DNA from: a virus
Taxonomy: Duplodnaviria > Caudoviricetes
IMG/VR virus record: IMGVR_UViG_3300027857_000022
Coordinates: 1 to 55,055 of that record
Reading direction: 5' to 3' (one strand)
Length of the DNA: 55,055 nt
In this document: piece by piece, positions 1-55,055 of the stretch
Layout of the letters: each line of letters opens with the position of its first letter
Position numbering within the stretch: position 1 is the stretch's first letter
The notes under the pieces: generated by a model
Databases searched by the model: none
Seen by the model: the letters and a program-made list of their open reading frames with translations, nothing else
What the model was told of the DNA's origin: nothing
Translations under genes and position numbers: made by a program

Positions 1-3
1 CGC

Positions 4-243
4 TCACAGGTCAGGGGGATCCACTCGAGCATTGGCTCGCTCCTTTCCCGCTGTTAGGCAGTCGACCCATCTGTCTAAAATCTGCTGCTGCCGACTCCCA
101 TTATACGATGGCTGCGGGCATTCCCGGTGCCAGGCCTTCTTGAATACCGGATCGTAGAAGATTCCACTACCGACTTCGATCCGATAGCCACACCTGGGAC
201 ACGTGCCTGCGAATTTCGCGTACATGAGATACGCACCTGGCAT
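4..243 (-). CDS. Small Zn-ribbon hypothetical protein
   Basis: AKFAGTCPRCG...WHREC motif; RBS AGAAAGGA before ATG at 243. Confidence 0.7.
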   Translation of the reverse strand: MPGAYLMYAKFAGTCPRCGYRIEVGSGIFYDPVFKKAWHRECPQPSYNGSRQQQILDRWVDCLTAGKERANARVDPPDL

Positions 244-370
244 CAAACGATCCTTTCTATTGTTGAGCTTTACACTCAAGTATTGCTCACTGAGAGCCAC
301 TATTTTTGCGAAATATGGACGAGACATCCCAATCTATCAATTTGTTGAGTCATAGCCCTTCTCGTCCATT

Positions 371-808
371 TTAGCGCGATTCTGAGGCATCCTTACGCAG
401 CTGCGTCCTGTGGAACAAACTGACGGCCACCTCGCATCGCGGTCTCTCTCGATCCACGAGCTTGCGTGTGTATTTCTCCACGATCAGATTATCATTCAAT
501 CCGATGCAATCGAATATCGCATCTATCACCGCTTTCTCACCTCCATCGATATCGCGACGCCAGAGCGTTGGAAAGTAGAAATCAATCGTGATTGAGAGTG
601 GTATTTTGCCTTTGGCTTTCTGGATATGATAGATCGTCATCCAGTCGAAGTTGCCCTTTTGCATATAAAGCTTGGCATGTGCCTCTTGCTTGAATGATCT
701 CAGTTCATCTGACCCGTAGAACCTGCCCCTACCAGATTTATAGCTGGCATTGATCCCTGGTGGCAAGGGCAGTGTCACACGGAGTACCTCACCAATCATT
801 GTCTGCAT
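371..808 (-). CDS. rusA: RusA-family Holliday junction resolvase
   Basis: LPLPPGIN, RRDIDGGEKAVIDAI, GLNDNLI motifs; located after the helicase. Confidence 0.85.
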   Translation of the reverse strand: MQTMIGEVLRVTLPLPPGINASYKSGRGRFYGSDELRSFKQEAHAKLYMQKGNFDWMTIYHIQKAKGKIPLSITIDFYFPTLWRRDIDGGEKAVIDAIFDCIGLNDNLIVEKYTRKLVDRERPRCEVAVSLFHRTQLRKDASESR

Positions 809-1031
809 CTTCTCTCATCCTTTCCTCGTATTGTACGACACACGGACAGCACCATATCTTGAGTCTTTCATGCCATACAAACTTCTCGACACTTCTCAGG
901 CACGTAATGCGTTCGCAGTAGCCGTGCTTGCCGCAGTAGAGCGTGCCTGACGGGCTCTTGAGCGTGGCATCCTTGCCACACGTGATACACGGTCCCAGTG
1001 ATGGCACGGCAAACAATTGCTCTTGGATCAT
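789..1031 (-). CDS. Cys-rich hypothetical protein
   Basis: Several Cys clusters; coupled to neighbouring genes. Confidence 0.65.
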   Translation of the reverse strand: MIQEQLFAVPSLGPCITCGKDATLKSPSGTLYCGKHGYCERITCLRSVEKFVWHERLKIWCCPCVVQYEERMREDADNDW

Positions 1032-1033
1032 TG

Positions 1034-2392
1034 TTAGTCCTCTCTTCCTTGGGTTAATTTCTGTTCAAGATTGTAAAACGCTGTAAGCTCTGAGTTGAAG
1101 TACAGCTGTACAGGCTCGCTGGTTGTCGGGCCGTTGCGATGCTTAGCAATCGAGATCTCTGCAATATTGCGCCGCTCAGCAGGAAGCTCGTCAAGCTTGC
1201 CAGCCCGAGCTGCATAATATTCCTCTCGATAGACAAACATTACGATATCCGCATCCTCTTCTATGGCACCGCTATCGCGTAAATCTGCCAGTTGTGGATG
1301 CTTGTCAGGTCGGTCCTCTACTTTCCTGGAAAGCTGAGCAAGAGAAAGCACAGGTACGTTAAATTCACGCGCCATGTTCTTGAGGCCCTTGCTGATCTTG
1401 TTGACCTCCTGCACACGATTCTCAGTCGGCTCGTCGGGAGCAACTAAGCCCAGGTAGTCAACAATCACTAAATCCATCTGACCATACTGTCTAGTCAGAC
1501 GGCGCATCTGGCTTCGCATGGAAGAAAGCGGATTGCCTGCGACATCGTTGATGTAGAGCGGTAGACTTGCAAGCCTACCCGCCGTCTCAATCACCTTGTC
1601 CCATTGCTCATCGGAGAGCCATCCCGACTTTAAGAGATGGAGTGGAATACCAGCAGCAATGGACATCATACGATCATTCAGCTGCGGGCGGTTCATTTCA
1701 AGCGTGAAGATAGCAACGCTTGAACCATGCATTGCCGCATTGTAGGCCATTGTAAAGGCCAGAGCACTCTTTCCCATCGAAGGCCGACCTGCCAGGATGA
1801 CCAAGTCCGACTTCTGCCAACCGCTGGTCATCAAATCCAGATCAGTAAAGCCCGATGCAACCCCCGTGAACGTGCCACGATTGGCATGCAGATGCCCCAG
1901 ATGCACAAGGTACTCGGCCATGGAGTCCGCCATGGTCACAAAGTCCCCTGAGACCGAGCCGCGCTCAACTGCTGTCAGCATGCTCGCAGCTTTCTCTAGC
2001 ATCTGGCTATCTTGTTCATAGGCCAGGGCTGCTACTTCACCAGCATAATGGATAAGCCTGCGGGCTGTAGCAGTTCTCCCCACGATGTCGGCATAGTACT
2101 CAACATTGCCACTGGTCGGCACACAGTTGGTGAGTCCCGTAATATAGCTGGCTCCATCAGCCTCACCCAGCTTGCCACGCCGCTCCAAATCATCACAGAG
2201 CGTCATGTAATCCGCAGGAGTCCCCGCTGCACTCAACTGGACGATCGCCTCGTAGATCACGCGGTGTGCATTTCGGTAAAAGTCGGATGCCTGAAGGAGA
2301 TCACTTACCAAGTCGTAGGCCTCTGGATCAATGATGAGGCTGCCTAAAACCCCCATCTCAGCATCGATATTGTGTGGAAGCAATTTCTCCAT
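1034..2392 (-). CDS. dnaB: Replicative DNA helicase
   Basis: LPHNIDAE N-terminus, Walker A GRPSMGKS, VIVDYL, LAQLSR, DLRDSGAIEEDAD, AKHRNGPT. Confidence 0.97.
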   Translation of the reverse strand: MEKLLPHNIDAEMGVLGSLIIDPEAYDLVSDLLQASDFYRNAHRVIYEAIVQLSAAGTPADYMTLCDDLERRGKLGEADGASYITGLTNCVPTSGNVEYYADIVGRTATARRLIHYAGEVAALAYEQDSQMLEKAASMLTAVERGSVSGDFVTMADSMAEYLVHLGHLHANRGTFTGVASGFTDLDLMTSGWQKSDLVILAGRPSMGKSALAFTMAYNAAMHGSSVAIFTLEMNRPQLNDRMMSIAAGIPLHLLKSGWLSDEQWDKVIETAGRLASLPLYINDVAGNPLSSMRSQMRRLTRQYGQMDLVIVDYLGLVAPDEPTENRVQEVNKISKGLKNMAREFNVPVLSLAQLSRKVEDRPDKHPQLADLRDSGAIEEDADIVMFVYREEYYAARAGKLDELPAERRNIAEISIAKHRNGPTTSEPVQLYFNSELTAFYNLEQKLTQGRED

Positions 2393-9081: not shown

Positions 9082-9864
9082 TCATGACGCCTCCGCCATT
9101 TCTACGTGCTCAATTTCTTGTTCGAGAGCCCACAACTGGCCCTCATCCAAGCTGATGAGATCATCGGCCTCCAGATCTAGCTCAAGGGCTGCGGAGATGT
9201 ACTCTACCATCTCCTGTTTGTTGGCGTAGAGCCCCTTGGCACGCCCCGCCTTGAAGAGCTGGTTCAGGCGTGCCTTCTTCTTGTCGGCTTCAGTTGCCTC
9301 GTGGATTTCTACCACGGGCATGCTTACATGGTCAGCTTGTTGCATCTCTTCGTTGGTGTAAATCCCGCTCATCTCAGCAGGAAAGGCACGTCTGAATGCA
9401 AGACTTTCAGCGCACTTAGCAGTCATCACATCGGGCATTTTTTGCCAAATCGTGCTGCTAGGCTGGGCATAGCTGGTATAGCGTGCAACGCCCCAAACAG
9501 GCTGCTCAAAATCCTTGCGCAAGATGCCAATGCGTGCCGCTGCTGGTGGCTCGGGCTTCAACCACACGTCAACCCATTCACCGTCAAGCCCACACCACTG
9601 AGGACCGATCTGGCCAGCATATAAGCCTGTTCTCTCTGCCATGAGCCTAAAGCCGTCAATGCTCGTTTGCACAACCATTTGGCCCCCACGCACAACAGCG
9701 TAAATCTGCCTTGCCATGGGATTGAGACGATAATGCTTGCACACTTCGATGAAAAGCAGAAATTGTTCTGGTGTTGTGCCTTTTGCAACGGTCTTACGAA
9801 TAAGTTCTAATTGCTCGTTATCAAACTGCTGCCGTGGGACTAATGTCCTGATGTTATTCTCCAT
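9082..9864 (-). CDS. bet: Bet/RecT-family ssDNA annealing recombinase
   Basis: LNPMARQIY, QTSIDGFRLMAERTGLYAG, WQKMPDVMTAKCAESLAFRRAFP, GIYTNEEM. Confidence 0.93.
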   Translation of the reverse strand: MENNIRTLVPRQQFDNEQLELIRKTVAKGTTPEQFLLFIEVCKHYRLNPMARQIYAVVRGGQMVVQTSIDGFRLMAERTGLYAGQIGPQWCGLDGEWVDVWLKPEPPAAARIGILRKDFEQPVWGVARYTSYAQPSSTIWQKMPDVMTAKCAESLAFRRAFPAEMSGIYTNEEMQQADHVSMPVVEIHEATEADKKKARLNQLFKAGRAKGLYANKQEMVEYISAALELDLEADDLISLDEGQLWALEQEIEHVEMAEAS

Positions 9865-10604: not shown

Positions 10605-10656
10605 TGTCGTTGCCTCTCTCGCTGTGGTTCGCGTCCCTCGTTCTTGGGACAGTCAT

Positions 10657-10800
10657 AGTATGCCACAAAAATATTTGTCTGTCAATGGTTTTTGAGACCA
10701 ATTTTGAGCAATTTATAAAAATCAAAAATATTGGCAGGCAAATATTGACAGACAAACTTTGGTGCTGTATTCTATGAGGGGCAGGGATATTTGCCTGTGA
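10657..10800. promoter_or_regulatory. Divergent sigma70 promoters with repeated CAG(A/G)CAAA(TAT) operators (switch 1)
   Basis: Leftward TTGACA(10685)-17-CATACT; rightward TTGACA(10745)-17-TATTCT; four operator copies. Confidence 0.8.
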
Positions 10801-10834
10801 AATATCCCTCATGTTTCATGAAAGGAGGGCATAA

Positions 10835-11071
10835 ATGAAGAAGGAGTGGATAACAGCGAAAGAAGCTGCTGAAATTATCTCAGCAAATAGCGGTCGTCCC
10901 ATCATTCAGCAGTATGTCCGAGAACTAGCACAAAAGGGTAAAATCACGTATAAGCCATTTGATGGACGTACTAATGTCTACCTGCGCTCGGATGTGGAAA
11001 AGATCAAGGTTCGCATCAAGAAGGTAGCAGACAGGCCAGACCAGAAAACAAAACCAGAGGAAGCGGCTTAG
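10835..11071 (+). CDS. HTH DNA-binding protein (MerR/Xis-like), paralogue of 19828..20103
   Basis: EWITAKEAAEIISANSGR...YVRELAQKGKI...YLRSDVE; strong RBS. Confidence 0.85.
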   Translation: MKKEWITAKEAAEIISANSGRPIIQQYVRELAQKGKITYKPFDGRTNVYLRSDVEKIKVRIKKVADRPDQKTKPEEAA

Positions 11072-17568: not shown

Positions 17569-18321
17569 TCACAGCTTGCCATGCCTCCTCAGCAGCTCTC
17601 GTGCCTTCTCTGCTTGCTCGGGGGTGAAGTAGTTGGTGTATCGTCCCTCTCGCGCAGTCGGTACCCTCATTCTCTCCAGTTGCTCACCGCGTATGCCATT
17701 CTTGAGCCAGCCCTCAAAAACGGTGAGCTTGATGCCGATCTGCTCTGCAAAGTCGGTCGAATGTAATGTCCCCTCTGGCAAATCAGCAGGTACGCTGAAT
17801 CGCGCCACAATGCGATTCTGGGCTTGTTGCTGGGCTTTTGCCTCCTCTGCATCACCTCGCACTCTCAAGGGCGTATTTTGGGGTTCTGGTCGCGATGTCG
17901 AGATTATGTAGGGACTGGTAGGGACTAATAGGGAGGTATTGGACAAGGCTTGTTCTAAGGTCTCTATTCTGTGGGCTTGAGCTGCAACCATCTCTTCAAG
18001 CTGAGCAATCCTGTCCTCTAGCCTCCTTATGCTGTCCATGGCATCCCTGGTATCCATGCCCAAGGATGGTGCAGACTCCGCTCCTATGGACTCCTTGGCC
18101 AGCCATGGACGCGCAAATTTTGCTTGTTCCTCCTCCCATCTGATCTTGGCATACTCGACTTGTCCGCCTGGAATAGCCAGCCATCCACGCTCTGTGCGTT
18201 CGGCTACAAGCTCCCCTCGTTTCAGCATGCGCCGTACTGTCTTTGGATCACACCCAATATATTTAGCTGCCTGAATTGCATTATAGAATGGCAAGATAGT
18301 TCTCCTCTCCTTAGACATCAT
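17569..18321 (-). CDS. HTH + coiled-coil + C-terminal domain DNA-binding protein (candidate partition protein)
   Basis: YNAIQAAKYIGCDPKTVRRMLKRGEL; heptad region IRRLEDRIAQLEE; internal repeats. Confidence 0.7.
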   Translation of the reverse strand: MMSKERRTILPFYNAIQAAKYIGCDPKTVRRMLKRGELVAERTERGWLAIPGGQVEYAKIRWEEEQAKFARPWLAKESIGAESAPSLGMDTRDAMDSIRRLEDRIAQLEEMVAAQAHRIETLEQALSNTSLLVPTSPYIISTSRPEPQNTPLRVRGDAEEAKAQQQAQNRIVARFSVPADLPEGTLHSTDFAEQIGIKLTVFEGWLKNGIRGEQLERMRVPTAREGRYTNYFTPEQAEKARELLRRHGKL

Positions 18322-19543: not shown

Positions 19544-19658
19544 GGTAATATCTCCTTAGTTTGTGGTAACTTGCTAGGAGCCAGGTGGCTCCGACTAGGC
19601 CCGCTCCTCGCCAAAGTAAGCGGGCCTTTTTTTGTGCCCTCCAATTGAGGACATTCTT

Positions 19659-19785
19659 AGTATACCGCATGTACGGCAATTTGTCAATAGTTTTTGCCGT
19701 GAAAATACCGCACATAACGAAATTTGGCAATTTTGAGAAACTCGTCCCCAAACCACTTGACAAAATGCCGTTTGTGCGGTACTAT
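19659..19785. promoter_or_regulatory. Divergent sigma70 promoters with repeated AAWTGCCGT-n-TGCGGTA operators (switch 2)
   Basis: Leftward TTGACA(19687)-17-TATACT; rightward TTGACA(19757)-17-TACTAT; near-identical spacers and a third partial copy between them. Confidence 0.85.
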
Positions 19786-19827
19786 CTAACTGTGCACTAG
19801 CACACGAGTGGTTTGACTTAAGGAGAT

Positions 19828-20103
19828 GTGGCTATGCCAGAGGAGCAACAGCCGACTAGTGAGGGAGATGACAAGCTACAAGAGTGGTATACCGCTAGTG
19901 AAGCCGCAAAAAAGCTAAGCGAAACCAGCGGGAAACGGATTGATCCTGACTATCTGTTCAAGCTTGGTCGTATGAAGAAAGTTCGCACTATGAAGCTGGG
20001 TAAACGGGTAACTCTCTACAGCAAAAATGATGTGGATAGTTACAAAGTCGGAGGTAGGGGAAGAAAGCCTACCAAGGATAGTAACTCATCAAAAGCGGCA
20101 TAG
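19828..20103 (+). CDS. HTH DNA-binding protein, paralogue of 10835..11071
   Basis: EWYTASEAAKKLSETSGKRIDPDYLFKL...LYSKNDVD. Confidence 0.85.
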   Translation: MAMPEEQQPTSEGDDKLQEWYTASEAAKKLSETSGKRIDPDYLFKLGRMKKVRTMKLGKRVTLYSKNDVDSYKVGGRGRKPTKDSNSSKAA

Positions 20104-21403: not shown

Positions 21404-21727
21404 ATGACCTACAGAGTATTCATTCCAAGCGAGAGTCTGGTCAAAACGGCCCGATGGACGCTGCAAGCCCTCGCAACAATCTGCGCCGTGACAGCCTGTG
21501 CGCTAGTCTTGATTGGCGCACTGCACGTCATGGCTTGGCTGTGCAGCTCGCTCATTGTGGTTATCCATGCGATGGCCTCGGTGTGCCATGAAGCCATCGC
21601 TGCTATCGGTGGCAGCCCCGAGAACGTCGTCGTTGTGTGCATCGTGTGGCTATTACTTGTTTTGAGTGTCAAAGCCACATGTATTCTGTTCTCGTCTTTT
21701 TTTCAAGCGGAAGGGGCAAGGGCATGA
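21404..21727 (+). CDS. Small multi-TM membrane protein
   Basis: RBS AGGAGG; 2-3 hydrophobic segments; ATGA-coupled to the ATPase. Confidence 0.7.
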   Translation: MTYRVFIPSESLVKTARWTLQALATICAVTACALVLIGALHVMAWLCSSLIVVIHAMASVCHEAIAAIGGSPENVVVVCIVWLLLVLSVKATCILFSSFFQAEGARA

Positions 21728-23277
21728 ATAACCGAGATGCCGTCCTTATTGGACTCTGTTTGTTTGCCGTGATCATGCTCGGCTCGTTCCTGCTCCTGCT
21801 TGACCCGAGTGTCCATCTCCGGTTCCTTGAGGCGGTTGATGCTGTGGGCAGAGGGATAGAGATCCTTTTCGCTGTGGGCATCACCCTGGGCAGTGCTGGG
21901 ATCGGCGTCAAAATCTGGCGCGGGCGTCATGTGCTGGTGGTCAAAGATGGCAAGGATGGGCAGATTGCGCGGGCTGTTGTGGTACGTGGGTCTCAAATTG
22001 TGCAGATCGGATCTGCTGAGCTTGGACTGAGCGAGCTGCTGAAGTTGCAAGGCGATCTCGTCAGTCAGCAGAAGGAGCATATGCGCGTGATTGATGCGGA
22101 GTCCAAGGCCATACGCACAATGCTGCCACTTCTGGAAGCATATGGTGACGATGAGGACACAGTGGAAGATCAGCAAAGAATTGAAGCTCCTCAGCTCTAT
22201 ACGCTCTCTGATCAGCTGGCATGTGGCCAAACAAGTCTGAACGAAGAAGATAGTCTTGTGGGCTATGTCGATGATGAGCCGCTACGGGGGAAGCTCTTCG
22301 ATGATGACGGGAATATGTTCGACTCGGTGTTCGTCTTCGGTGACCAGGGCTTTGGCAAATCCACCTTTGCCACGTACCTTGCAGCTCTCACCGTGTTGCA
22401 TCACGGTCGCTTCATCGTGATCGACCCAGATGCTGAGTTTGGGCAGTCGCTCTCTGTTCGACTCGGGCCATTAGCCAACGAGATCTTCTTGCTCTGTCCG
22501 ATAGCGGATACTCCACAAAAGGCCGCCCATGCCGTCGCTCTTGCAAGAGATGAGCTAGAAAGCCCTGGGGACTATCCAGTGTTGTGGCTCATTGATGAAT
22601 TTAGCATGATTGCTCGTCAAGCTACAGGTGGTACAGGCAAATGGTCAGAGGTTGGGAAAGAACTGATTGAGCTGACGGAGGACTGGGCGACCCGTGGGCG
22701 CAAACGAAGACGGCGCGTCGTCGCCTTCGGTCAAATTCCCAACGCGAAGCGATCCGGTGGAACGGAGTTCCGTGACTCGACCACAACCGTCTGCTTTCAC
22801 CTGAAGAAAAAGCGAGCACAGATGGTCCTTGAGGATGAGGCGGAGATAGCACCGGATCTCGGCCCTGGTGAGGTGATTGTTGTACCAGCGAGGTCATCGG
22901 AGGCAAGTTACCGCATGCAACTGCCAATGCCGGATCGTGACGGATTGGTTCAGGTAGCAAGGACTATGGCTCAAATGGCTTTTGAAGGGGGTGCAGATGG
23001 TTCAGAGTATGTCAAACTAGAACGATCGAGCACCCCCTTGGCACCCGTTCAGCACCCTTCGAGCACCCTCTATGAACCGTTTGTCGTTGACCATGAGACT
23101 GCTTTCAAAGTGAAAGTTCAGCGGATACGTGAAATGCGTGCCCAGAACAAAAATCAGGAGCAGATCATTGAGGCAATTTACGGTGTGAGGAAGGGCGGGA
23201 ACGCAAAGTATGCAACAGCTCGCGATGAGTACCTCTCTATCATGCAACTGCTTGCGTCAACGGAAGGAGAGGTATGA
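21724..23277 (+). CDS. Membrane-anchored FtsK/HerA-superfamily ATPase (TraB-like architecture)
   Basis: Two N-terminal TM segments, Walker A GDQGFGKST, Walker B LWLIDEF, RGRK...Q motif, C-terminal HTH-like NQEQIIEAIYGVRKGG. Confidence 0.8.
   Translation: MNNRDAVLIGLCLFAVIMLGSFLLLLDPSVHLRFLEAVDAVGRGIEILFAVGITLGSAGIGVKIWRGRHVLVVKDGKDGQIARAVVVRGSQIVQIGSAELGLSELLKLQGDLVSQQKEHMRVIDAESKAIRTMLPLLEAYGDDEDTVEDQQRIEAPQLYTLSDQLACGQTSLNEEDSLVGYVDDEPLRGKLFDDDGNMFDSVFVFGDQGFGKSTFATYLAALTVLHHGRFIVIDPDAEFGQSLSVRLGPLANEIFLLCPIADTPQKAAHAVALARDELESPGDYPVLWLIDEFSMIARQATGGTGKWSEVGKELIELTEDWATRGRKRRRRVVAFGQIPNAKRSGGTEFRDSTTTVCFHLKKKRAQMVLEDEAEIAPDLGPGEVIVVPARSSEASYRMQLPMPDRDGLVQVARTMAQMAFEGGADGSEYVKLERSSTPLAPVQHPSSTLYEPFVVDHETAFKVKVQRIREMRAQNKNQEQIIEAIYGVRKGGNAKYATARDEYLSIMQLLASTEGEV
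23030..23079 (+). repeat. GCACCC x4 at exact 11-bp period
   Basis: Starts at 23030, 23041, 23052, 23063; degenerate GAACCG at 23074; inverted GGGTGC at 22989. Confidence 0.85.
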
Positions 23278-23729
23278 TGTCGCTCTACGAGAGGTACCGA
23301 CTTGAGCGGGCTGTCAAGACGGACATGGAAGATCTGCCAATGAAACCAAGATCAGCACCGACGGTCAAGCGCAAGCCTGCATCATCGGCATCGAAGAGTC
23401 CTCGTCGCCGATCCACTGCAACCAGGAACCAAACAGCCAAGACCACGGCAAGGCCTGTAAAGCCGCTGCCACCGTTGGGAGCAAAGCAGACAGAGCAACC
23501 ACGGGACCGATTGGGGCGCTTCGCTCGCAAGACGGGTGCTGTGCTCTGGTCTGGTGCCAAAGCTACAGGCCGTGCGATCCGTGGTACTGCTCGGGGTGTC
23601 AAGCGCATACGTTCTGATATGCGGCGACGGGCACGCCTTGAGGAACGGGAACGGCGGGTAGCCCTTGCCGAGCGTGAAAAGAAGCTTGGATTACGCAAGA
23701 AAACAGTAATTCGTAGGAGGAAACGATAA
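23274..23729 (+). CDS. Very basic (Arg/Lys-rich) protein
   Basis: Coupled on both sides; contains QPRDRLGRF. Confidence 0.7.
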   Translation: MMSLYERYRLERAVKTDMEDLPMKPRSAPTVKRKPASSASKSPRRRSTATRNQTAKTTARPVKPLPPLGAKQTEQPRDRLGRFARKTGAVLWSGAKATGRAIRGTARGVKRIRSDMRRRARLEERERRVALAEREKKLGLRKKTVIRRRKR

Positions 23730-24730: not shown

Positions 24731-24788
24731 TACAATTCTGGCAGGATATGTAGAGCATCCATGCAAGTGAGTGAAAGGAAGAAATATC

Positions 24789-24974: not shown

Positions 24975-24992
24975 GGCTTGCCAGATGCGAGG

Positions 24993-37780: not shown

Positions 37781-40540
37781 TTACATTTTTGTTGCGACAC
37801 TATAACGGATAGCATTCGCCATGTACGGCATAAGACCGTTAGCCAGGAGCTGTCCGTTCAGATAAAGTGGCGGGGAATTGACAACGACGGTTATGTTTGC
37901 CTGGTTGCTCAATTGACTAGGGATAGTAGTGAGTCCTGGCATCGTGATGCTCGGATTTGACGCTGGAGAGAGTTGCATCGCAATAGGCTTCACAAGTTGG
38001 CCGATCGCTGTTTGCAGCTTGGGAAGAGAAGAAAGCATCCCCTGCGATAGTTGCTCCGTGATGAGTGAGCCTTGGAGGCCAAGATCAGTAAGGGGCCCGA
38101 TCTTGGCAGGCGAATGCGGGAGATGGCTACTTATGAAGCTTGTAACAGAATTCATTGCATCCCCGACCGCTCCTATCGCGCCCTTGATCCCATTCGCAAT
38201 GCCATTGACAATGTTTGTCCCTGCATTTGTTGCATTATTAATTATACCATTCCAGAAATCTGTTAATTTACCGGGCAAAGACTGAAGTGCATTCATTGCT
38301 CCTTGTGGCAAATTCCCAAACCAACTAATGATACTATTGATCATATCCGGTATGATCGAATGCCCCACGAGCTTTTCCTTCATATCAGTAGCCTTATCTA
38401 ATGCATTTTTATGTAAATTCTCCATTTGAGTAGTGACACCTACCTGCATCTCCAATGCGTGCTTTTGAACAGGATCTGATGTGTCCTTCATTTTCTGAAT
38501 AAGCTGCTGACGTGTATTATCAAGATTTTTAACCATTTTATCTTGCATATCAATTGTGGCTTGAATTGTCTTTGATTTCATATCATTTGCACTTTGCGAT
38601 GCACCATCACTCATGTCACCAAACGACTTTAGCACGCTTTTTGCCATATCACCTGCTGGTCCCGGAATATTGGACATAGCCTCAAGCAGTGGTTTGAACA
38701 TGCCAACAAGTGCTTCTATTCCGCCTTTTACCCATTGTTTGATCCCATCCCAGACTCCTTTGAGCATATCCTTGAAATCATTCCATGCTTGCTTCCAATT
38801 CCCTCCCAAGATGTCCAAACCAATCTTGATGTAGCCTGATATCAATGCCCATGCTATCTTTACTACACCTTGAATCTCATCCCACACACCCTTGAGGACT
38901 GCCAAAATCATCGGCCACGCCTGATTCCACGCAGTCATGAAACCTTGTACTAATGGTGTGAGTGCTTTAATCCATCCAGAAATGATAGGCGCAACACGAG
39001 AAGCAATATCTTCAGCAAATTGAACAACAGCTTGCGCGGCTTGCTTCACTACCGCGCCGATTTGATTCATAAAATCGCGAAAGGGCTTGACATTATTGTA
39101 GAGATACAGAAATCCCGCAACCAATCCCGCGATCGCTGCACCAATCAGCAGGAAAGGCCATGCAGCAGCCAAGGTCGCGACCGCAGCCGCGCCAGCAGCA
39201 GCCGCCCAAGACCAAAAGGCAAACACCAGGATACCCGCGATCGCACCCGCGACCGGAATGAGTACAGTTTGTAGTGTCGCAAGAGCTGCGTGATTCTTTT
39301 CAAAGAAATTGGCTAGATTCGATCCGACATCGACAACCTTCTGGATACCATTGATCAGACCAAGTAAGGCTCCCGTCACAAAGCCTGCAACAGCCGTCGC
39401 AAAACTTTGGAATGCAGGTGAGGAGAATCCGTCCATCAGCTTGCCAAGCGCTGGCAAGAGTGCCGTACCGATTTTGATGCCCAGTGTCTCAAGGGTCGCT
39501 TTGGCTTGATCCATCTTGAAATTGAAGGTGCTCTGAACATTGGTCCAACCTGTGATCGAGTCGCCACCCTTCTTCACCGCGTCGCTGATACTGGAAACAT
39601 TGCCCTTGAAGGTATCCAAGTGGCTCCCTGTCAGCTCCAGCACGCCCTGCATCTGTTTACTTCCGCCTGCGATATCCGCCAAAGCTTTCACATAGGCTGC
39701 ACTGCCTTCTGGGAACTTATTCTTGAGATGATCAGTGATGAGGGTGAGTGTATCAGGCAGGCTCTTCTTCATCTCTGAAGCGACATCGGAGGAGGAAAGA
39801 CCAATAGACCTAAGAGCATCGGCACCTTTCTTGGCAGGATTTTCCAGTGACATGATGGTCTGTCTGAGATAGGTTGCAGCGTCCGCCGCTGGCGTTCCTT
39901 CTCCCGTCATTGTCGCCATCGCACCCGCTGTATCGCGCAGTGAAACACCCGCAGCGGATGCTGTAGGAAGAATTGAGGAGAGAGACTGTGCAAGATCGGT
40001 CATGTGCGTTTTGCCAGCCGCGACCGTTGCCACCAGCGTGTTGGTGACCTCTGTCGCTTTAGAGGCTGGCATGGCATAATCGGTGAGAGCAGTGGTCACA
40101 CCATTGGCCACGCTAGCCAGGTCAGCATTGCCGACTTTCGCACCCTCCGCAGCGGCTTTGAGTACCTGCAAGCCATCGGCCCCATGAAAACCCGCGGACT
40201 CGATCATGTACATGCCATCGGTCAAAGCTTTGGTCGTCGTGCCGACCGCAGGAGCCATAGCCAGAATTCCGTCGCTCACCATCTTGATGTTTTTCTGGCT
40301 CTCCCCTGCCCCCGTCACCAGCGAAGTCATCCCAGCTTGGAAGTCACCAGCCATCTTGACGGATGCCACACCAATCCCGATCAGAGCCGCAGCGCCAACA
40401 ACAGCCGCGCCGATCGCAAACGAGCGAATGCTCGCCGCACCTTTATCAACAGAGCTGCTCACACCCTCTACTTGTGCTTTGGTTGTGTCAGCTCCTGTGG
40501 CATTGATTGCGACTGAGAGCTGAGCTGCTGTGATTCCCAT
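37781..40540 (-). CDS. Tape measure protein (TP901-like)
   Basis: 919 aa, Ala/Gly-rich helical, periodic Trp repeats, LPHSPAKIGPL. Confidence 0.93.
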   Translation of the reverse strand: MGITAAQLSVAINATGADTTKAQVEGVSSSVDKGAASIRSFAIGAAVVGAAALIGIGVASVKMAGDFQAGMTSLVTGAGESQKNIKMVSDGILAMAPAVGTTTKALTDGMYMIESAGFHGADGLQVLKAAAEGAKVGNADLASVANGVTTALTDYAMPASKATEVTNTLVATVAAGKTHMTDLAQSLSSILPTASAAGVSLRDTAGAMATMTGEGTPAADAATYLRQTIMSLENPAKKGADALRSIGLSSSDVASEMKKSLPDTLTLITDHLKNKFPEGSAAYVKALADIAGGSKQMQGVLELTGSHLDTFKGNVSSISDAVKKGGDSITGWTNVQSTFNFKMDQAKATLETLGIKIGTALLPALGKLMDGFSSPAFQSFATAVAGFVTGALLGLINGIQKVVDVGSNLANFFEKNHAALATLQTVLIPVAGAIAGILVFAFWSWAAAAGAAAVATLAAAWPFLLIGAAIAGLVAGFLYLYNNVKPFRDFMNQIGAVVKQAAQAVVQFAEDIASRVAPIISGWIKALTPLVQGFMTAWNQAWPMILAVLKGVWDEIQGVVKIAWALISGYIKIGLDILGGNWKQAWNDFKDMLKGVWDGIKQWVKGGIEALVGMFKPLLEAMSNIPGPAGDMAKSVLKSFGDMSDGASQSANDMKSKTIQATIDMQDKMVKNLDNTRQQLIQKMKDTSDPVQKHALEMQVGVTTQMENLHKNALDKATDMKEKLVGHSIIPDMINSIISWFGNLPQGAMNALQSLPGKLTDFWNGIINNATNAGTNIVNGIANGIKGAIGAVGDAMNSVTSFISSHLPHSPAKIGPLTDLGLQGSLITEQLSQGMLSSLPKLQTAIGQLVKPIAMQLSPASNPSITMPGLTTIPSQLSNQANITVVVNSPPLYLNGQLLANGLMPYMANAIRYSVATKM

Positions 40541-45864: not shown

Positions 45865-46785
45865 TTATGGATGCTGTAGGTATGCAGCACACAGCGCATA
45901 CGGGCGGACAGTTTTCGCTCCGTAGAGCACAAGAGATTTCACGGCATCAGAGAAGCGGTATGGCGGTCGGTAGGCTTCCGTCTCGCTCAGACCTTCTGCT
46001 TTTGTCAGGGCCATTGGATGTCCTGCTAGGATCACGTCCTGTGAACCAGCAGCTCCTGTTGTGCCACCAAGATGGACAGCATTCAGGCTCTCGTAGACAT
46101 CGAAGCCTTCGATCTTGCCCAAGTAGGCATCGCTACTCATACCAGCGGAGGCATCAAGCTTTCCTGACAGGATGGTTTGACGGCCTGCATCGGTATTGAA
46201 GCTGGTGAAGCGGATGTCCTGGGTAAGATACGTTTTGATCCACGGAGGCACAACACACCAGCGCCCCGACTTGGGAACGGCTTGCTCAGTCAACTTCTGA
46301 CCCATCTGCACGATATAGTCGTAGGCGGTCGTGCCCGCGCCGACATTTGTGCTGGTAGGAACTGAGATAGTTTGGAAGCTGCTAGAGGAACCGATGAGGT
46401 TGGTTGCATCTGTATAGAAACCCGCGTAGTATTGATCCATCGTGAGCGCGAGCTTGTAGCCCGCCCACGAGATCATCTCTGCGTAGGCATCAGGATGTGC
46501 TTGTGCACGATCTACATCATCTATCGCGACGTTATAGTATTTCGCCTGTGATATAGTGAGCATTGTTTGAGCATCTGTCATGCTCTGCGGTGCGTTGATA
46601 TCGGTGTCTTTGGTGTAGGAGTATACAGTCACATCACCTATTGCATTAATTCTAACTGTATCCCCCATTTGCTTCAGTTCCCCTTCATAATCGCCGTTGA
46701 AGAGATTGCCGAAGACGAGGTTTACTCGTAGAGCAGCAAGGATTGTATCTGCCCATATTTGAGGTATAAACGAGTTGAGAGACAT
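45865..46785 (-). CDS. Major capsid protein (P22-coat-like family)
   Basis: FIPQIW, DYEGE...GDTVRI, VPKSGRWCVV, LYGAKTVRP. Confidence 0.93.
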   Translation of the reverse strand: MSLNSFIPQIWADTILAALRVNLVFGNLFNGDYEGELKQMGDTVRINAIGDVTVYSYTKDTDINAPQSMTDAQTMLTISQAKYYNVAIDDVDRAQAHPDAYAEMISWAGYKLALTMDQYYAGFYTDATNLIGSSSSFQTISVPTSTNVGAGTTAYDYIVQMGQKLTEQAVPKSGRWCVVPPWIKTYLTQDIRFTSFNTDAGRQTILSGKLDASAGMSSDAYLGKIEGFDVYESLNAVHLGGTTGAAGSQDVILAGHPMALTKAEGLSETEAYRPPYRFSDAVKSLVLYGAKTVRPYALCAAYLQHP

Positions 46786-50256: not shown

Positions 50257-50582
50257 TCTTGCTCCTTTGGCAGTTCAGTCATGTCTGGGATAGACTCGAC
50301 CTTTTCTTTCAATGACCGATAATATTTGTCACCACAGAAGTGATAACGAGTAGAGTGTTCTACCAAGTCGTAGGCCCAACGCGCTATGATACTCTCCCAC
50401 TCTTCACGCCAATCATCTTGGAACGGCGTTCTTACCTCTACAATGCTTCCCTGGAGAAGTTCAGCGAGAAGCGCCTTTGCAAAACCCTGGAATTGGGTAT
50501 CCCTACTCATTTGTGCTGCAGATGGCCGTAGATGCTCAATAATCCAATCTCTCATTCTGTCTTCATTCATTCCCCATGCCAT
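50253..50582 (-). CDS. Hypothetical protein
   Basis: Inserted between the portal and minor capsid genes. Confidence 0.65.
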   Translation of the reverse strand: MAWGMNEDRMRDWIIEHLRPSAAQMSRDTQFQGFAKALLAELLQGSIVEVRTPFQDDWREEWESIIARWAYDLVEHSTRYHFCGDKYYRSLKEKVESIPDMTELPKEQE

Positions 50583-51987
50583 CCTTCTGTGCTATCTGGC
50601 TATCCTGCTGTATTGCCTGTTGAGCTTGTCGTACTGGTGGCAGGCCTGTGCCATTTGCATAGTTCTGCATCTTCTGCTGATCCTCTGCTTGACTCTTCTC
50701 TGCCTCAGCATCAGGATCGAAACCAGCACCCTGAATGAGCGTCGCATTCGAGACACCAAGCTGTTGCCAGAGAATAGCCGTTTGAGCAGCAGCAAGATCA
50801 TCTACAGGCAAAAGATTCTGCCAATGTAGATCTATCGAATAATCTGCATATTCTTCAATCGAGAGCTTGCCACACAGAACAAGCGCTGCTCGTGACAGCT
50901 CCCGTATCAGCTTGCCATAGAGTCGCTGCTTGAGGATCGTCTTCTCGATGATAGGTTGGAACAAAAGTTGAAGTGCTACACCTGAGATATTGCCTTTGGG
51001 AAGATCGACCAGCCTACCAAGGGCAACTGCTGGGATACGGCTTTGCTCATCCATATCTGAGCGAAGATCGGCCACGACGGAGAGCAGGCCCGTAAAGTTT
51101 TCCATCGCCGCGATCTTCTCGATCTTGGCACTCTCCGATTGCAGGACGATGAGATTGTCGATATCCATCTTGATCTGCGAGGCGCCTATGCCACTGGCCC
51201 ATGTGACGGGATGCCCGTGGTACTTTACTACGCGTGAAATGTTGGACAGAATAAAGTTGAGCACCTTGTTCATCTCAATCAGATCTTGCGTGAGATCCGG
51301 TATTCCCCAGGGCTCATTCGGATTGGGTAAATTCTGACAGGTAAAGATCGGCGCAAACGGATAGGGCCAGTCTTGTGGCGTACCGTCCTGCGACCATGTG
51401 CCGTTATCGCCTCTACGAGTATAATTCGTGATTGTCCATGTATCTTCTACGTCTTTCTCACCAAGCGCGTACAGATCATTCCTTGGGTCCACACGTGCGA
51501 TGATCTGCCTCTTCTGCATGTGCGTATTGACCGGATATTCGATGATATAGGCGATGTGCAGTTCGCAGTCGTCGGGAAGCGTGATAATACGCAAGAGCAT
51601 CGGATCGAGGATGACCATACGCGGTGGCACGCCGTCTTCTGATGGGATAAGCTTCACGAATGGCTGGCCACAGACGCCGCCATTCATTGCCAGCTTGGTA
51701 AGCGTCGTCATCTTGTCGTCGTCGTCGCCCCAGAAACTGTCTAGATCCTCTTGGTCATCGCACTCGATTTTGAGCGTCTGACCGAAGAGAAAGCTCACAC
51801 CCTTATCGACGATCGGCGCACATCTGTTCGACTTCACATTGTCATTTGGCTGGTCTTTGGCAACTTTGAGCGGGTCCTGCAACTCACCACGATACGCCTT
51901 CCACGCTTGCTGCATGCACTGGCGACGCTTGGTGTCGGCTTGTGTTGCAGGTGCCTCTGCTAATGTTTGGGCTTGTGTGGCTAGCAT
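50563..51987 (-). CDS. Portal protein (SPP1 gp6-like)
   Basis: NRCAPIVDKGVSFLFG, WGIPDL, GNISGVALQL, WQNLLPVD. Confidence 0.93.
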   Translation of the reverse strand: MLATQAQTLAEAPATQADTKRRQCMQQAWKAYRGELQDPLKVAKDQPNDNVKSNRCAPIVDKGVSFLFGQTLKIECDDQEDLDSFWGDDDDKMTTLTKLAMNGGVCGQPFVKLIPSEDGVPPRMVILDPMLLRIITLPDDCELHIAYIIEYPVNTHMQKRQIIARVDPRNDLYALGEKDVEDTWTITNYTRRGDNGTWSQDGTPQDWPYPFAPIFTCQNLPNPNEPWGIPDLTQDLIEMNKVLNFILSNISRVVKYHGHPVTWASGIGASQIKMDIDNLIVLQSESAKIEKIAAMENFTGLLSVVADLRSDMDEQSRIPAVALGRLVDLPKGNISGVALQLLFQPIIEKTILKQRLYGKLIRELSRAALVLCGKLSIEEYADYSIDLHWQNLLPVDDLAAAQTAILWQQLGVSNATLIQGAGFDPDAEAEKSQAEDQQKMQNYANGTGLPPVRQAQQAIQQDSQIAQKDGMGNE

Positions 51988-52401: not shown

Positions 52402-52403
52402 AC

Positions 52404-53723
52404 CTACCTCCATATGCTCTGAATGTATGACACACCACTCTGCTGTAAATCGAAGTGTGCAACTAAGTACCGTAACGCGTCATTTCCATCATCCTGTTCT
52501 TTCACAGGATGTTCTCCTTTTTTCATGCCTTGCCTCGTATCCCAAATATATCCTTCCATTTCATCGGATAGCTCAGTTGGCTGTTTGGCGGCTTGTAAGT
52601 CTTTATCCCGTTCGACTAAGCTATCTCGCATGACGTAGATACGTGGCTTGCCATCACCAGACGGTCTCAAGCGTGAGGCAACGGCTTGAATACCATCGGA
52701 GACGGACTTGTGCGCAGGCGTGACATAGAGACCAAGGTGCCGTTCCAAAGTCGCTCTGTCTTCCGCGTCGTGGTCGCAAATCACGGCACGTGGCATGGGA
52801 TCGCCACCTCGCTCGCCCCAGTGGGATACTGCTTTGATCGTTCGTGCATGATCCTCTACCAGCGTCTTGGTCTTGTAGATCTGCCTGTAGACATAAAGCC
52901 TGCCATCGGGATCTTCAGCAGCCCACAAGCACACAAATGGATGAGTATATCCGAAGTCGATAGCCAGGTAGCGCGGCCACTCGATGGGAGGAGTATAGTG
53001 GTTGATGATGTTACGGGCAGGGTCCCAGCAATCTTCGTACACCATACCCTCAGCTGATACCCACAAACCTAGCCGATATCTCGCGTACCGAACACCTGTG
53101 AGCTGGTCGAGCTTTTCGAGATAGCGCTCACCTTCCACTGTCATCGTGCCATCGCGATTGAAGAGCATCGGGTTGTCTTCGTGGCGTGTCTCAAGCAGAA
53201 GTAAGCGCCCCATAGACTCACGTTGCCGTATCCAGTGGTTGGCAGGCCCGGGATTGACATCACCAAGCAACTGCTGAAATGGAAGCTTACCATTGCGAAG
53301 ACGAATGCTGCAGGACTCCCAATCATTTTCTTCACACTCGGTCGTCTCCTGGATATAGATGATATCCCACTCAGATGACATGATCTTGCTAGGTTTGTCA
53401 AGCCCGCCTACTGCGATGATAGAGCTGTTGGGATATTGATACTGTTGCATCGATGTCTTGAAGCGGACGCCCTGAGCAGGATGCAAGACCTTTTGTTCTA
53501 ATGTGACCATACCGGATTCAGTGAGGGAACGGCGTGTCTTTCTTGCCATAAGAGCACGCACGCCGGAATACTCCATACAGCAGTAATTGATGTATTCCAG
53601 GATACCGCGAGACTTGCCAGTCCCGGCAGGCCCTGCGATGATCAACTCAGGAGGATGCTCTATGAAGATTCTACCTATGTTTCCATAGGCTGTGTAGGTC
53701 TCCTCAATCGTTGCTACTGCCAT
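52404..53723 (-). CDS. terL: Terminase large subunit
   Basis: GPAGTGKS, IYIQE, DVNPG, AIDFGY, DDGNDALRY. Confidence 0.95.
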   Translation of the reverse strand: MAVATIEETYTAYGNIGRIFIEHPPELIIAGPAGTGKSRGILEYINYCCMEYSGVRALMARKTRRSLTESGMVTLEQKVLHPAQGVRFKTSMQQYQYPNSSIIAVGGLDKPSKIMSSEWDIIYIQETTECEENDWESCSIRLRNGKLPFQQLLGDVNPGPANHWIRQRESMGRLLLLETRHEDNPMLFNRDGTMTVEGERYLEKLDQLTGVRYARYRLGLWVSAEGMVYEDCWDPARNIINHYTPPIEWPRYLAIDFGYTHPFVCLWAAEDPDGRLYVYRQIYKTKTLVEDHARTIKAVSHWGERGGDPMPRAVICDHDAEDRATLERHLGLYVTPAHKSVSDGIQAVASRLRPSGDGKPRIYVMRDSLVERDKDLQAAKQPTELSDEMEGYIWDTRQGMKKGEHPVKEQDDGNDALRYLVAHFDLQQSGVSYIQSIWR

Positions 53724-54156
53724 CTACACCTCCTGGCATCAGCACGATTTTCTTGACGTAGTTCTGGTTCGCAAAGTCTTGTTCTGGAGTCACGTCCAAA
53801 TTGAGCAACTTCCGTCTATCCTTGCTCAGCTCAATCAATCGGTCCACTGCCCATAAGTTTGTCTTAATCTCTCCATCTTTATTTTTCGTTTCAAACGCTT
53901 CTGCCCATACTTTCTGGTGTATTGCGTCTAATATATCTTTTTCTTGTTCTCTATATTCATCAATATTCGGATGTATTCTTCGTTGCAATTCTCGTTGTAC
54001 TGCTTTGTGCGCACTTCCCCTATCGGAATACCCGCAACGTTTCGCAATCTCATCATATGTCAAACGCTGCTTCAATAGATCAATCGCCATAGCTACACGT
54101 TCAACAGCATTTACATCACGGCGTTGTACCTTCTGTGTTGGCTTGCTATTCCCCAT
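53704..54156 (-). CDS. terS: Terminase small subunit
   Basis: HTH LTYDEIAKRCGY...AHKAV, RRKLLNLD; upstream of terL. Confidence 0.8.
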   Translation of the reverse strand: MGNSKPTQKVQRRDVNAVERVAMAIDLLKQRLTYDEIAKRCGYSDRGSAHKAVQRELQRRIHPNIDEYREQEKDILDAIHQKVWAEAFETKNKDGEIKTNLWAVDRLIELSKDRRKLLNLDVTPEQDFANQNYVKKIVLMPGGVDGSSND

Positions 54157-54352
54157 GTTTCACCTCGCACTTACACTGTTTCACAGGTGGCATCCATGGT
54201 ATTTTTCCAGGCGCTCGATGCATGACAATCGATATGCAGCCACCACACACATTATGCATTACAAACAGGAAACCACCATGAGAGATGTAGAAGCGGCCTC
54301 CTGTGCGCAGGATAAATGTTCGCGGGTGGTCTATGGCGGTAATCTCAGTCAT
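54146..54352 (-). CDS. Hypothetical protein
   Basis: Coupled ORF. Confidence 0.5.
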   Translation of the reverse strand: MTEITAIDHPRTFILRTGGRFYISHGGFLFVMHNVCGGCISIVMHRAPGKIPWMPPVKQCKCEVKHGE

Positions 54353-54506
54353 GCTCGTAATGCTCCTTGAGGAAGAGATACAGCGCCTCTAGCTCTTGCG
54401 GCTCCAATGCAATACACGTGTTGCCAACGCGAAGAAGCGCCTCACCGTGTTCCAAGATCTGCGCTATCATCTCTCCTGTTTGCAGCGTTTTGCGTTCTGC
54501 TTGCAT
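54345..54506 (-). CDS. Small hypothetical protein (53 aa, not in ORF track)
   Basis: RBS AGAGGAG; MQAERKTLQTGEMIAQILEHG... Confidence 0.6.
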   Translation of the reverse strand: MQAERKTLQTGEMIAQILEHGEALLRVGNTCIALEPQELEALYLFLKEHYEHD

Positions 54507-54529
54507 GTGCTCTCCTCTTGACATCAGGG

Positions 54530-54610
54530 ATACACGCTAGTATAGCATAAATTCTACAGAAATCTATAGATTGAGAACGAATATTCTGGAGATTTTAGAG
54601 ATTTTGAATT
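54530..54610 (-). promoter_or_regulatory. Candidate late promoter: extended -10 TGcTATACT without a consensus -35
   Basis: Upstream of the whole late block; adjacent tcta(c/t)aga repeats. Confidence 0.45.
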
Positions 54611-54667
54611 GCAACTAATGGCGGTTAGTTGGCATTCTCTCATTCCACTAGGCGATGATTTGAGCAT

Positions 54668-55055
54668 TCATGCTTCGCGCTTCTTTTGCCTTGCACGCCG
54701 CCTCCATTCTCTGGAATACTTCCTATGCGCCTCTCTCTGTTCATCTGTCATGTTATGATAGTGTGCCCTGCGTTGCGCATTTCGTCGTAGTCGTGCCTCT
54801 TTTGATAGTTTTTTCCCCTTATATGGGTGTCGCTCTCTATATCTTTCATTCCGTACTTTGACTTTATCTTTGTTTTCCATGCGCCATGCAGTATGATACT
54901 CATTTATGCAGAGTCTGCATATCTGGCCACGCTTAGCAAAAGGATTTTCACCGGATTCTGGCTCACCGCACTTAGAGCAGGTGCGACTGGTCGAGGTACA
55001 TGCGGGACAGAGCGCGGTATCCCACTCCTCTTCCTCCGACTCAATGCGACCGCAG
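54668..55055 (-). CDS. Junction-spanning Zn-finger/basic helical protein (starts at position 32, continues 55055->54668, 139 aa)
   Basis: RBS AAAGGAG then ATG at 32-30: MLEWIPLTCE-R-CGRIESEEEEWDTALCPAC...CSKC...CRLC...MENKDKVK, in frame with the listed 54668..54880 ORF. Confidence 0.8.
   Translation of the reverse strand, partial: CGRIESEEEEWDTALCPACTSTSRTCSKCGEPESGENPFAKRGQICRLCINEYHTAWRMENKDKVKVRNERYRERHPYKGKKLSKEARLRRNAQRRAHYHNMTDEQREAHRKYSREWRRRARQKKREA

Follow-up and report, generated by a model that had tools for sequence, protein, structure and literature searches.

How a tailed phage is carried by its host when its genome closes into a circle and encodes no recognisable integrase is the question raised by the DNA described here, a stretch of 55,055 bp (the window) that constitutes a complete single-contig virus record of IMG/VR (IMGVR_UViG_3300027857_000022; G+C content 48.6%). 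It represents in full the genome of a soil phage, siphovirus-type and with predicted SPP1-like headful packaging, and it also contains an operon for a putatively membrane-anchored ATPase with an FtsK/TcpA fold, whose gene has a short array of direct repeats within it. We regard as a plausible hypothesis, held with rather less than even confidence, that this is a temperate phage which does not integrate, and which has its own theta origin and a DNA pump like the TraB/clt system of Streptomyces plasmids.

Closure of the genome is indicated first by an open reading frame (ORF) that spans the two ends of the record. On the minus strand, an ATG at 32..30 with a strong upstream GGAAAGGAG Shine-Dalgarno sequence (~41-49) opens ten codons, the Arg codon that follows is split between bases 2 and 1 and base 55055, and a further 128 codons run to a stop at 54668. 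ORF calling on the circularised sequence returned a single zinc-ribbon ORF of 139 amino acids (aa) across the join, in frame. It has four CxxC pairs, the first of which exists solely across the join, just as a preliminary description of this DNA had claimed. The window's own ATPase protein is also recorded on a contig of 55,196 bp, that is 55,055 plus 141, and the extra 141 bp suggest that a 141-bp (k-mer) end overlap of the assembly was trimmed; 141 is presumably the largest k of an assembler. Gene order points the same way. Among the five long relatives found through the large terminase subunit TerL (G001 to G005), G002 has DnaB, small genes, the small terminase subunit TerS and TerL contiguous on one strand, and the same order is seen across the window's join (identities between the two are 33% for DnaB, 77% for TerS and 73% for TerL). 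RusA adds nothing here and was set aside: the protein of the window is not similar to the ORF that occupies a like position in G002. The 128-aa part of the junction ORF found no locus among the viral contigs, and against the five relatives it gave one weak match, in G002 (28% identity, E 0.005). CheckV estimates the completeness of the window at 100%, and the expected phage modules are each present once.

This DNA occurs in a single metagenome run, X1, which may be the source sample and is kept as contigs; no RNA run with this DNA is listed. A Logan contig of 40,324 nt starting from 14735 would, if collinear, end ~3 nt beyond 55055 by arithmetic. Three observations pull in the other direction: IMG/VR classes the record as "linear", meaning that end repeats were not found; a Logan contig of X1 terminates exactly at position 1, and the 1-800 piece has a depth of 7.3 against 10.3 in its neighbours, which suggests a branch in the assembly graph; and none of the X1 contigs over positions 1-20000 bridges position 1. 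Overall, closure of the window into a circle, as a complete genome, is well supported.

Genes for integration or partition were sought in this closed genome by several routes. Six-frame hidden Markov model (HMM) searches of the window with PF00589 (Phage_integrase), PF00239 (Resolvase), PF07508 (Recombinase) and PF00665 (rve) were negative at E <= 1, while each search did match its control genomes. PF01656 (CbiA/ParA) reached just 10.9 bits in six frames, at the P-loop of the 546-aa ATPase ORF. No recombinase, transposase, partition or plasmid-replicase family was found with Pfam (58 distinct ORFs), PHROGs (40) or NCBIfam (10), and the integrase of G001 left no remnant in the window at E <= 10. 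As far as HMMs can see, this upholds the preliminary statement that tyrosine and serine recombinases, transposases and ParA are lacking, to which protelomerase, included in that statement, cannot be added as it was not searched in six frames.

In the ATPase, two long hydrophobic N-terminal helices (read from the sequence and from the AlphaFold2 model) and a coiled coil precede the P-loop motor; beyond a disordered linker, the C-terminal domain is made of three helices. The AlphaFold2 model of the ATPase, built on an alignment of 35 homologs, has a predicted local distance difference test score (pLDDT) of 75. Its top ten Foldseek matches are all FtsK motor-domain chains (best E 2.3e-10), and further fold matches in the PDB are TcpA, the conjugation coupling protein of pCW3 (E 1e-8), EssC/EccC and HerA. 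The G, K and D/E residues of the Walker A and B motifs are invariant across the 35 homologs. Pfam family FtsK_SpoIIIE (PF01580) does not match the ATPase; the share of members with PF01580 ranges over 16-92% among its Atlas neighbours, which serves only as a lead. On the basis of the model we infer that the ATPase is a double-stranded DNA (dsDNA) translocase of the FtsK/TcpA fold, predicted to act as a hexameric pump. The operon had been described beforehand as transfer-like, a label that the Foldseek matches to FtsK and TcpA make more specific: it is an operon for an FtsK-fold, putatively membrane-bound ATPase.

Within the linker codons of the ATPase gene lie four heptamers at a strict spacing (Table 1), with an inverted copy at ~22989-22994, ~35 bp upstream of the array. 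Searching the genome for a two-copy pattern gave three consecutive matches, at the array only, against 0.29 expected; the single heptamer is not enriched genome-wide (12 matches vs 10.6 expected). Because the period of 11 bp is not a multiple of three, the repeat is a property of the DNA sequence rather than of the encoded protein. An array occupies the same linker position in five of the seven ATPase homologs examined, with changed motifs. In G002 there are three copies of AGCACCC with an 11-bp period, and in G006:C533 three copies of CTCGAACCG at 11 bp with inverted GGTTC copies upstream; G180 and G177 have repeats at 11 bp, and G125:C14 has, as read by eye, five copies of TGAAAC with 10-12-bp spacing. 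The more distant homologs L131 and L132 yielded no array. A fixed place and period together with a shifting motif have the look of a protein-binding site that co-evolves with its binder, and the array may accordingly be described as a putative protein-recognition site inside the ATPase gene.

The ATPase is 73% identical in G002, has distant paralogs in G004 and is lacking from G001, G003 and G005. Outside these viral records, relatives were found in 6 of 169 Ktedonobacteria genomes, four of which (G125, G123, G011 and G075) gave no match to the TerL of the window. In G125:C14 the ATPase homolog adjoins a fragment of an actin-like ALP_N gene.

The closest parallel to this module is found in Streptomyces. 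According to the parts of two accounts on which we draw, the Tra proteins of Streptomyces are FtsK-like pumps with two transmembrane segments, and the clt site, which is bound by Tra, is made up of 7-9-bp direct repeats with inverted repeats and is located at, or overlaps, the 3' end of tra; Tra acts with membrane Spd proteins, among them SpdB2, a DNA-binding protein with four transmembrane segments that has homologues on some actinophages (PMC4447253, PMC3583192). Like the TraB/TraA-clt-Spd systems of pSVH1, pIJ101 and pWTY27, the window's module combines a putative two-helix N-terminal anchor, an FtsK-type motor and a small helical C-terminal domain with a cis array of short direct repeats and an inverted copy, placed at or within the 3' portion of the translocase gene, and with neighbouring small membrane or DNA-binding proteins and a divergently placed regulator. 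By analogy, then, it matches the TraB/clt architecture point by point, and not by sequence family: PF01580 is absent from the window ATPase and DUF87 is below its cut-off. The ATPase is also shorter, at 517 aa, than the 688-772 aa given for Tra proteins in these accounts (PMC4447253, PMC3583192), and its source is probably a Chloroflexota phage rather than an actinomycete plasmid. A limited literature search found no description of a TraB/FtsK-type, plasmid or conjugative system in Ktedonobacteria.

A candidate origin lies in the early region. The four palindromic 13-mers inside the gene for the putative 373-aa initiator account for 8 strand-matches (0.30 expected) and are absent from the rest of the genome. 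In lambda, the origin repeats lie inside the initiator gene O, in its linker-coding part, and the replicative helicase function is encoded adjacent to it. The window likewise has iterons within the initiator gene, again in a stretch coding for a linker, and a helicase function encoded next to it. It differs from lambda in that Phage_rep_O matches neither the 373-aa nor the 127-aa protein, in supplying its own DnaB and not a loader, and in having an extra copy of the DNA-binding domain. From the sequence, 3035-3102 is a candidate origin in the style of lambda O, and the stand-alone 127-aa paralog, as a free origin-binding domain, could damp initiation. Two origin-like loci had been reported in the preliminary description. 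Only one, at 3035-3102, is supported here, and a second, at 11597-11655, was rejected as an origin; a long inverted repeat is present there, without any of the initiator 13-mers. Just downstream of the 127-aa paralog, at 11572-11655, a perfect hairpin with 11-nt arms is followed by this long inverted repeat, whose arms (~11597-11611 and 11641-11655) enclose two copies of CTCTCATCA. The element may act as a terminator, encode a small RNA or bind a protein.

Both divergent control regions contain operator-like repeats. The operator pattern of region 1 has 4 matches in the genome against 0.44 expected, and that of region 2 has 4 against 0.57; one site of region 2 overlaps a TTGACA-17-TACTAT promoter, read by eye. 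The 78-aa and 91-aa helix-turn-helix (HTH) proteins that open the two rightward operons are paralogous (35% identity, E 3e-10). The small leftward cluster 19543-17569 encodes a membrane protein as well as the 250-aa protein, which is a candidate repressor. The two divergent switches seen beforehand are thus confirmed, with three operator-like repeats each, and the earlier count of about eleven HTH or ribbon-helix-helix regulators was roughly right. HTH_17 is above the Pfam cut-off in just two proteins, the 67-aa protein at 24,771 and an 86-aa protein at 3,644, and the other regulators are sub-threshold or read by eye.

The wider lineage bears on whether the phage is temperate. TerL matches 412 viral contigs. 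We searched the five long relatives for integrases and eight records for ParA. PF00589 integrases were found in two of the five, G001 (61.5 kb, 100% complete) and G005; small resolvases are present in G001 and G004, and ParA exceeds the Pfam cut-off in two of the eight records, G004 and G005. In the fragment L010, an HTH_17 gene and a gene for a 334-aa integrase stand directly upstream of TerS, the HTH_17 gene directly preceding the integrase. G002, which shares the ATPase, has no integrase (PF00589), resolvase (PF00239) or ParA above cut-off. A weak CbiA match in G002, in a 303-aa frame, was rejected as ParA, being by eye a P-loop ATPase of the phage-recombination type. The ends of G002, itself a "linear" record, overlap by ~212 bp inside TerL (L095:1-212, L098:1265-1476), the inner 120 bp being identical and the outer part ~85% identical, and G002 probably closes too, through a strain mix. 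G004 (47,219 bp, 70% complete; TerL 63% identical) has ParA, a resolvase and two FtsK-like ATPase paralogs (23560-23877, 36872-37270, 16926-20385) and, as a candidate phage-plasmid, is more typical than the window.

The closest capsid genes, 83% and 74% identical to that of the window, are on 3-kb contigs of two metagenome-assembled genomes (MAGs), one titled uncultured Ktedonobacterales bacterium (G006) and the other only uncultured bacterium. G006 also has TerL copies at 77% and 73%. Within the class of G006, the Ktedonobacteria, 3 of the 169 genomes have a capsid match, G077 among them. There, at G077:C3:1618364-1623980 in a contig of 2,812,935 bp, TerL is in three pieces and the capsid gene in two, with TGA and TAA stops; these pieces are a decayed integrated relative of the window phage. 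The same capsid search of the 169 genomes found no relative as a separate replicon. From the integrases of the relatives and the decayed prophage in G077 we infer that the lineage to which the window phage belongs is temperate. The host probably belongs to the Ktedonobacteria of soil, which are mycelial Chloroflexota; abstracts describe the Ktedonobacteria as actinomycete-like and mycelial.

If the phage is a non-integrating temperate one, its genome would circularise after infection, and the initiator would bind the four palindromic iterons in its own gene and recruit the phage DnaB for replication of the lambda O type. The two switches with tripartite operators would hold the genome quiet. 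In place of ParABS, a TraB-like module made up of the membrane-anchored FtsK-fold hexameric dsDNA pump, the heptamer array in cis and membrane or DNA-binding helpers would serve to move or segregate the unintegrated phage DNA among the compartments of the hyphae or into spores. The temperate lineage, the presence of ParA in G004 and G005 and a TraB/clt-like module that could stand in for partition all strengthen the plasmid reading. A bolder proposal, which we consider unlikely as a whole, is that a Ktedonobacteria phage took up an actinomycete-style TraB/clt pump in order to keep and spread a free circular prophage through hyphae and spores, achieving partition, and perhaps conjugation, by pumping, with the array co-evolving inside the pump gene.

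Precedents for carriage of this kind exist. The nearest for a phage with a Tra-type translocase is pZL12, a Streptomyces plasmid-phage whose major tra gene is required for transfer, as summarised in parts of two sources (PMC7157519, PMC3583192); it is an extrachromosomal temperate phage of a mycelial host, as the window phage would be, a likeness drawn from its description only. Streptomyces plasmids of 88-93 kb have capsids 34-36% identical to that of the window and, unlike the window, the one inspected has ParA and an integrase. The circular Streptomyces plasmid L128 (87,853 bp) has a capsid 36% identical to the window's; its first 50 kb encode ParA, an integrase, ERF, SSB, a WhiB-like protein and lysis genes, and it is evidently a phage-plasmid-like actinomycete replicon. 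Some 20% of cluster A mycobacteriophages have parABS in place of the integration cassette and exist as one- or two-copy plasmids, according to one account (PMC7157519). Like the lineage of the window, these phages (RedRock, Miko and others) are a tailed temperate lineage with members that have or lack an integrase, in hosts with an actinomycete-like biology. They differ in having ParA and ParB, parS repeats and a RepA or RNA origin, and in a plasmid state shown experimentally, as that account relates (PMC7157519), whereas the window has no match to ParA or ParB and its candidate maintenance module is an FtsK-fold pump deduced from sequence and a structural model. Phage-plasmids in the sense of Pfeifer et al. 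2021, such as the P1, N15 and SSU5 groups, need a replicase and are expected to have partition systems, and an integrase is not required, as set out in part of that paper (PMC7969092). The window resembles them as a temperate-type tailed phage that would need no integrase and has a size within their range; it differs in lacking matches to every marker class tested and in having no kinship at the DNA level to deposited phages.

A number of results weigh against extrachromosomal carriage. By the markers that could be tested, which did not include the 38 replicase profiles of its authors, the definition in the part of PMC7969092 cited above does not pick out the window as a phage-plasmid. None of the scanned ORFs matches ParA, ParB, ParM, TubZ or plasmid-type Rep families, and no repressor of a known family was found. 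The ATPase falls under every Pfam cut-off (20.2 vs 23.2 bits for DUF87, its best match, with AAA_22 also below), and the 333-aa membrane-HTH protein encoded behind it has no similarity to the 421-aa protein at the same place in G002 (E 0.72). A tblastn search with the ATPase of 72,556 plasmid and 50,697 phage records gave no match at E <= 1e-5, and megablast of 50 kb of window sequence against the deposited phages (50,697 records) returned nothing. G179 has an ATPase homolog together with two PF00589 integrases, and the notion that the ATPase replaces an integrase as a rule was rejected for this reason. The host assignment draws on fragments in binned MAGs and on a single decayed prophage. No isolate genome carrying the phage as a separate replicon was found, and run X1 yields neither a phage:host ratio nor, over the 1-20000 piece, a contig across the join.

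Nor does the circle itself help. The packaging genes are SPP1-like, with Terminase_3, an SPP1 portal and Mu_F (28.3 bits, just below the cut-off of 29.6), and by analogy the window phage is expected to package by headful in the same manner. Phages of the SPP1 type package by headful, and their virion DNA is circularly permuted and assembles as a circle. Because SPP1-like headful genomes assemble as circles anyway, a circular assembly says nothing about lifestyle. Finally, complete phage genomes that lack an integrase mostly belong to virulent phages. Extrachromosomal carriage, as put forward in the preliminary description, therefore retains part of its basis: the genome does close and has no recombinase that HMMs recognise, and both switches, one of the origins and the transfer-like operon are real; the circle is uninformative, and partition and plasmid-replicase markers were not found.

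It is quite possible, if short of probable, and nearly as likely as extrachromosomal carriage, that the phage is instead strictly lytic and descends from temperate ancestors through loss of the integrase. The operators and HTH proteins would then time early and late transcription, the module would spread replicating DNA across the septa of a mycelial host or exclude other phages or plasmids, and the circle would come merely from headful packaging and assembly. This would account for the lack of any integrase, partition gene or known repressor family, it suits the SPP1-like packaging genes and the failure of the capsid search to find a separate replicon in the class, and it has the base rate just mentioned on its side. 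Thoma et al. suggested, in the part of their article concerned, that the SpdB2 homologues of actinophages may assist in spreading phage DNA (PMC4447253), a role that would also suit a lytic phage. A strictly lytic life fits less well with a lambdoid gene set (RecT, RusA and an O-like initiator with DnaB) in a lineage with integrases and ParA, or with two tripartite operator regions and an opposed small cluster encoding an HTH/coiled-coil protein and a membrane protein, which together have the typical layout of an immunity region. The "moron"-like membrane genes (VIT1 and DUF1003) after the lysis genes also speak against it, as does the pump homolog beside an actin-like segregation gene in G125:C14, in a genome without a related terminase.

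Integration by a recombinase that HMMs do not see, for example the 221-aa or the 326-aa ORF, or by the host Xer proteins at a dif-like site, possibly aided by the FtsK-like ATPase, seems improbable. To our knowledge, Xer-dependent integration occurs in filamentous phages and not in tailed ones. The idea draws on the two excisionase-family HTH_17 proteins above the Pfam cut-off, which have no partner integrase in the window and recall the HTH_17 gene that directly precedes the integrase in L010, on the many window ORFs without a family, and on the activation of XerCD at dif by FtsK, as described in part of PMC3130261. Against it stand the six-frame search, which found nothing for the four recombinase families, and the lack of any remnant of the G001 integrase. 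The 326-aa ORF (5527-6507), for which a scan for recombinase or partition folds had been called for at the outset, has no Pfam, PHROGs or NCBIfam match and 6 homologs only, and is not similar to the 326-aa ORF of G001; its AlphaFold2 model, poor at pLDDT 62, consists mostly of helices and matches no PDB entry at E <= 0.001, and the ORF was rejected as a cryptic recombinase or partition protein. The 221-aa ORF was likewise rejected as a cryptic recombinase, with no usable Atlas match and TM-scores all < 0.35. The contigs of run X1 over 1-20000 are collinear at a depth of ~7-14 and show no joints to host or foreign DNA and no loose ends, except for a 151-nt low-depth record over DnaB.

That the join is an assembly artefact, with a segment carrying an integrase or ParA missing from the record, is very improbable, since the in-frame ORF with a proper start and its completed CxxC pair, the contig 141 bp longer, the CheckV estimate, the single copy of each module, the gene order of G002 and the reach of the 40,324-nt contig outweigh the "linear" class and the contig end at position 1.

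Extrachromosomal prophages are probably under-counted, because screens target ParABS and known replicases, and a plasmid prophage maintained by a pump and a cis repeat array would add a route of maintenance that such screens miss. If the non-integrating temperate reading is correct, it would also extend dsDNA translocation of the Streptomyces type to another mycelial phylum, and the origin, the switch and the segregation or transfer module might serve as tools for the Ktedonobacteria, which are poor in genetic tools. If the phage is simply virulent, the question of what a membrane DNA pump and its recognition site do in a phage stays. In either case, circle closure should not be used as evidence of a plasmid lifestyle, and the pump with its co-varying internal repeat array is the feature most worth following.

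The remaining genes are arranged in a simple manner (Table 1). Genes run leftward from ~10,604 to position 1 and, over the join, from 55,055 to 25,828. The early leftward block encodes RecT, an HNH endonuclease, an SbcC-like coiled-coil protein, the 373-aa initiator, DnaB and RusA. After the junction ORF come TerS, TerL, YopX, the portal, a Mu-F-like head protein, the scaffold, the major head protein and the tail genes, and the late block continues with the 919-aa tape measure protein, baseplate-like genes, the Amidase_2 endolysin and small membrane proteins. The part from 10,835 to 25,636 consists of two rightward operons and one small leftward cluster, nearly all of them ORFans. Packaging, head, tail and lysis functions are all represented by PHROGs and Pfam matches.

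Table 1. Positions of the principal features of the window
Feature	Position	Strand	Remarks
Putatively membrane-anchored FtsK/TcpA-fold ATPase, 546-aa ORF	21637..23277	+	Likely start 21724 (517 aa, the form in the Atlas and the protein collection)
clt-like array, four RGCACCC heptamers	23029..23068	+	Putative; starts 23,029, 23,040, 23,051 and 23,062; exact 11-bp period; in ATPase linker codons
151-aa protein, very basic	23274..23729	+	A basic protein likewise follows the ATPase homolog in G125:C14
333-aa protein	23729..24730	+	N-terminus with multiple hydrophobic helices, acidic coiled coil, C-terminal HTH_17 (sub-threshold)
67-aa excisionase-family HTH_17 protein	24771..24974	+	50.4 bits
221-aa ORF	24971..25636	+	Final gene of its operon; without a family match or fold lead
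Junction ORF, start	1..32	-	ATG 32..30, ten codons
Junction ORF, C-terminal 128 codons	54668..55055	-	Zinc-ribbon; 55055 completes the Arg codon
Putative replication initiator, 373 aa	2392..3513	-	N-terminal DNA-binding domain; directly upstream of dnaB; origin repeats within coding sequence
Origin-like iterons, four palindromic 13-mers GGTAGwTTsTACC	3035-3102		Inside initiator gene
Stand-alone paralog of initiator DNA-binding domain, 127 aa	11185..11568	+	52% identity over 121 residues, E 7e-43
Divergent control region 1	10605..10834	.	Three operator-like ATATTGrCAGrCAAA sites, 10674-10756, one inverted
Divergent control region 2	19544..19827	.	Three operator-like 16-mers (TACCGCACAwACGGCA-like), 19663-19781
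78-aa HTH protein	10835..11071	+	First gene of rightward operon 1
91-aa HTH protein	19828..20103	+	First gene of rightward operon 2
250-aa protein	17569..18321	-	N-terminal excisionase-type HTH_17 (sub-threshold) and coiled coil; last gene of leftward cluster, 19543 to 17569
TerS, small terminase subunit, 150 aa	53704..54156	-	77% identical to gene directly upstream of TerL in G002
TerL, large terminase subunit (Terminase_3)	52404..53723	-	Pfam/PHROGs
SPP1-type portal protein	50563..51987	-	Pfam/PHROGs
Major head protein	45865..46785	-	phrog_267; relatives on plasmid records annotated P22 coat-like
Tape measure protein	37781..40540	-	PHROGs
Amidase_2 endolysin	28062..29027	-	Pfam/PHROGs
DnaB-type replicative helicase	1034..2392	-	Pfam
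RecT recombinase	9082..9864	-	Pfam/PHROGs; leftward early operon
RusA	371-808		Leftward early operon
HNH endonuclease	3937-4317		Leftward early operon

Several smaller observations concern other parts of the window. Over 13518-14761 the Logan contigs of X1 fragment into short pieces with depths of 13.4 and 28.5, compared with ~10-11, which suggests a variant or a repeat common to another genome in the sample. Two membrane-protein genes directly downstream of the lysis genes, at 26467-27388 on the minus strand, match the VIT1 family of iron/manganese transporters (60 bits) and DUF1003 (55 bits); they may act like holins or alter the host as "moron" genes. Between TerL and the portal gene is a member of the YopX family (89 bits; 51991-52413, minus strand), an odd position for a non-structural gene. 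Lastly, an 18-bp tandem repeat in 4.2 copies (ATGATGATGATGCTTCAC) lies at 43675-43749 between ORFs of the tail region, and on the minus strand it would read as runs of His codons.

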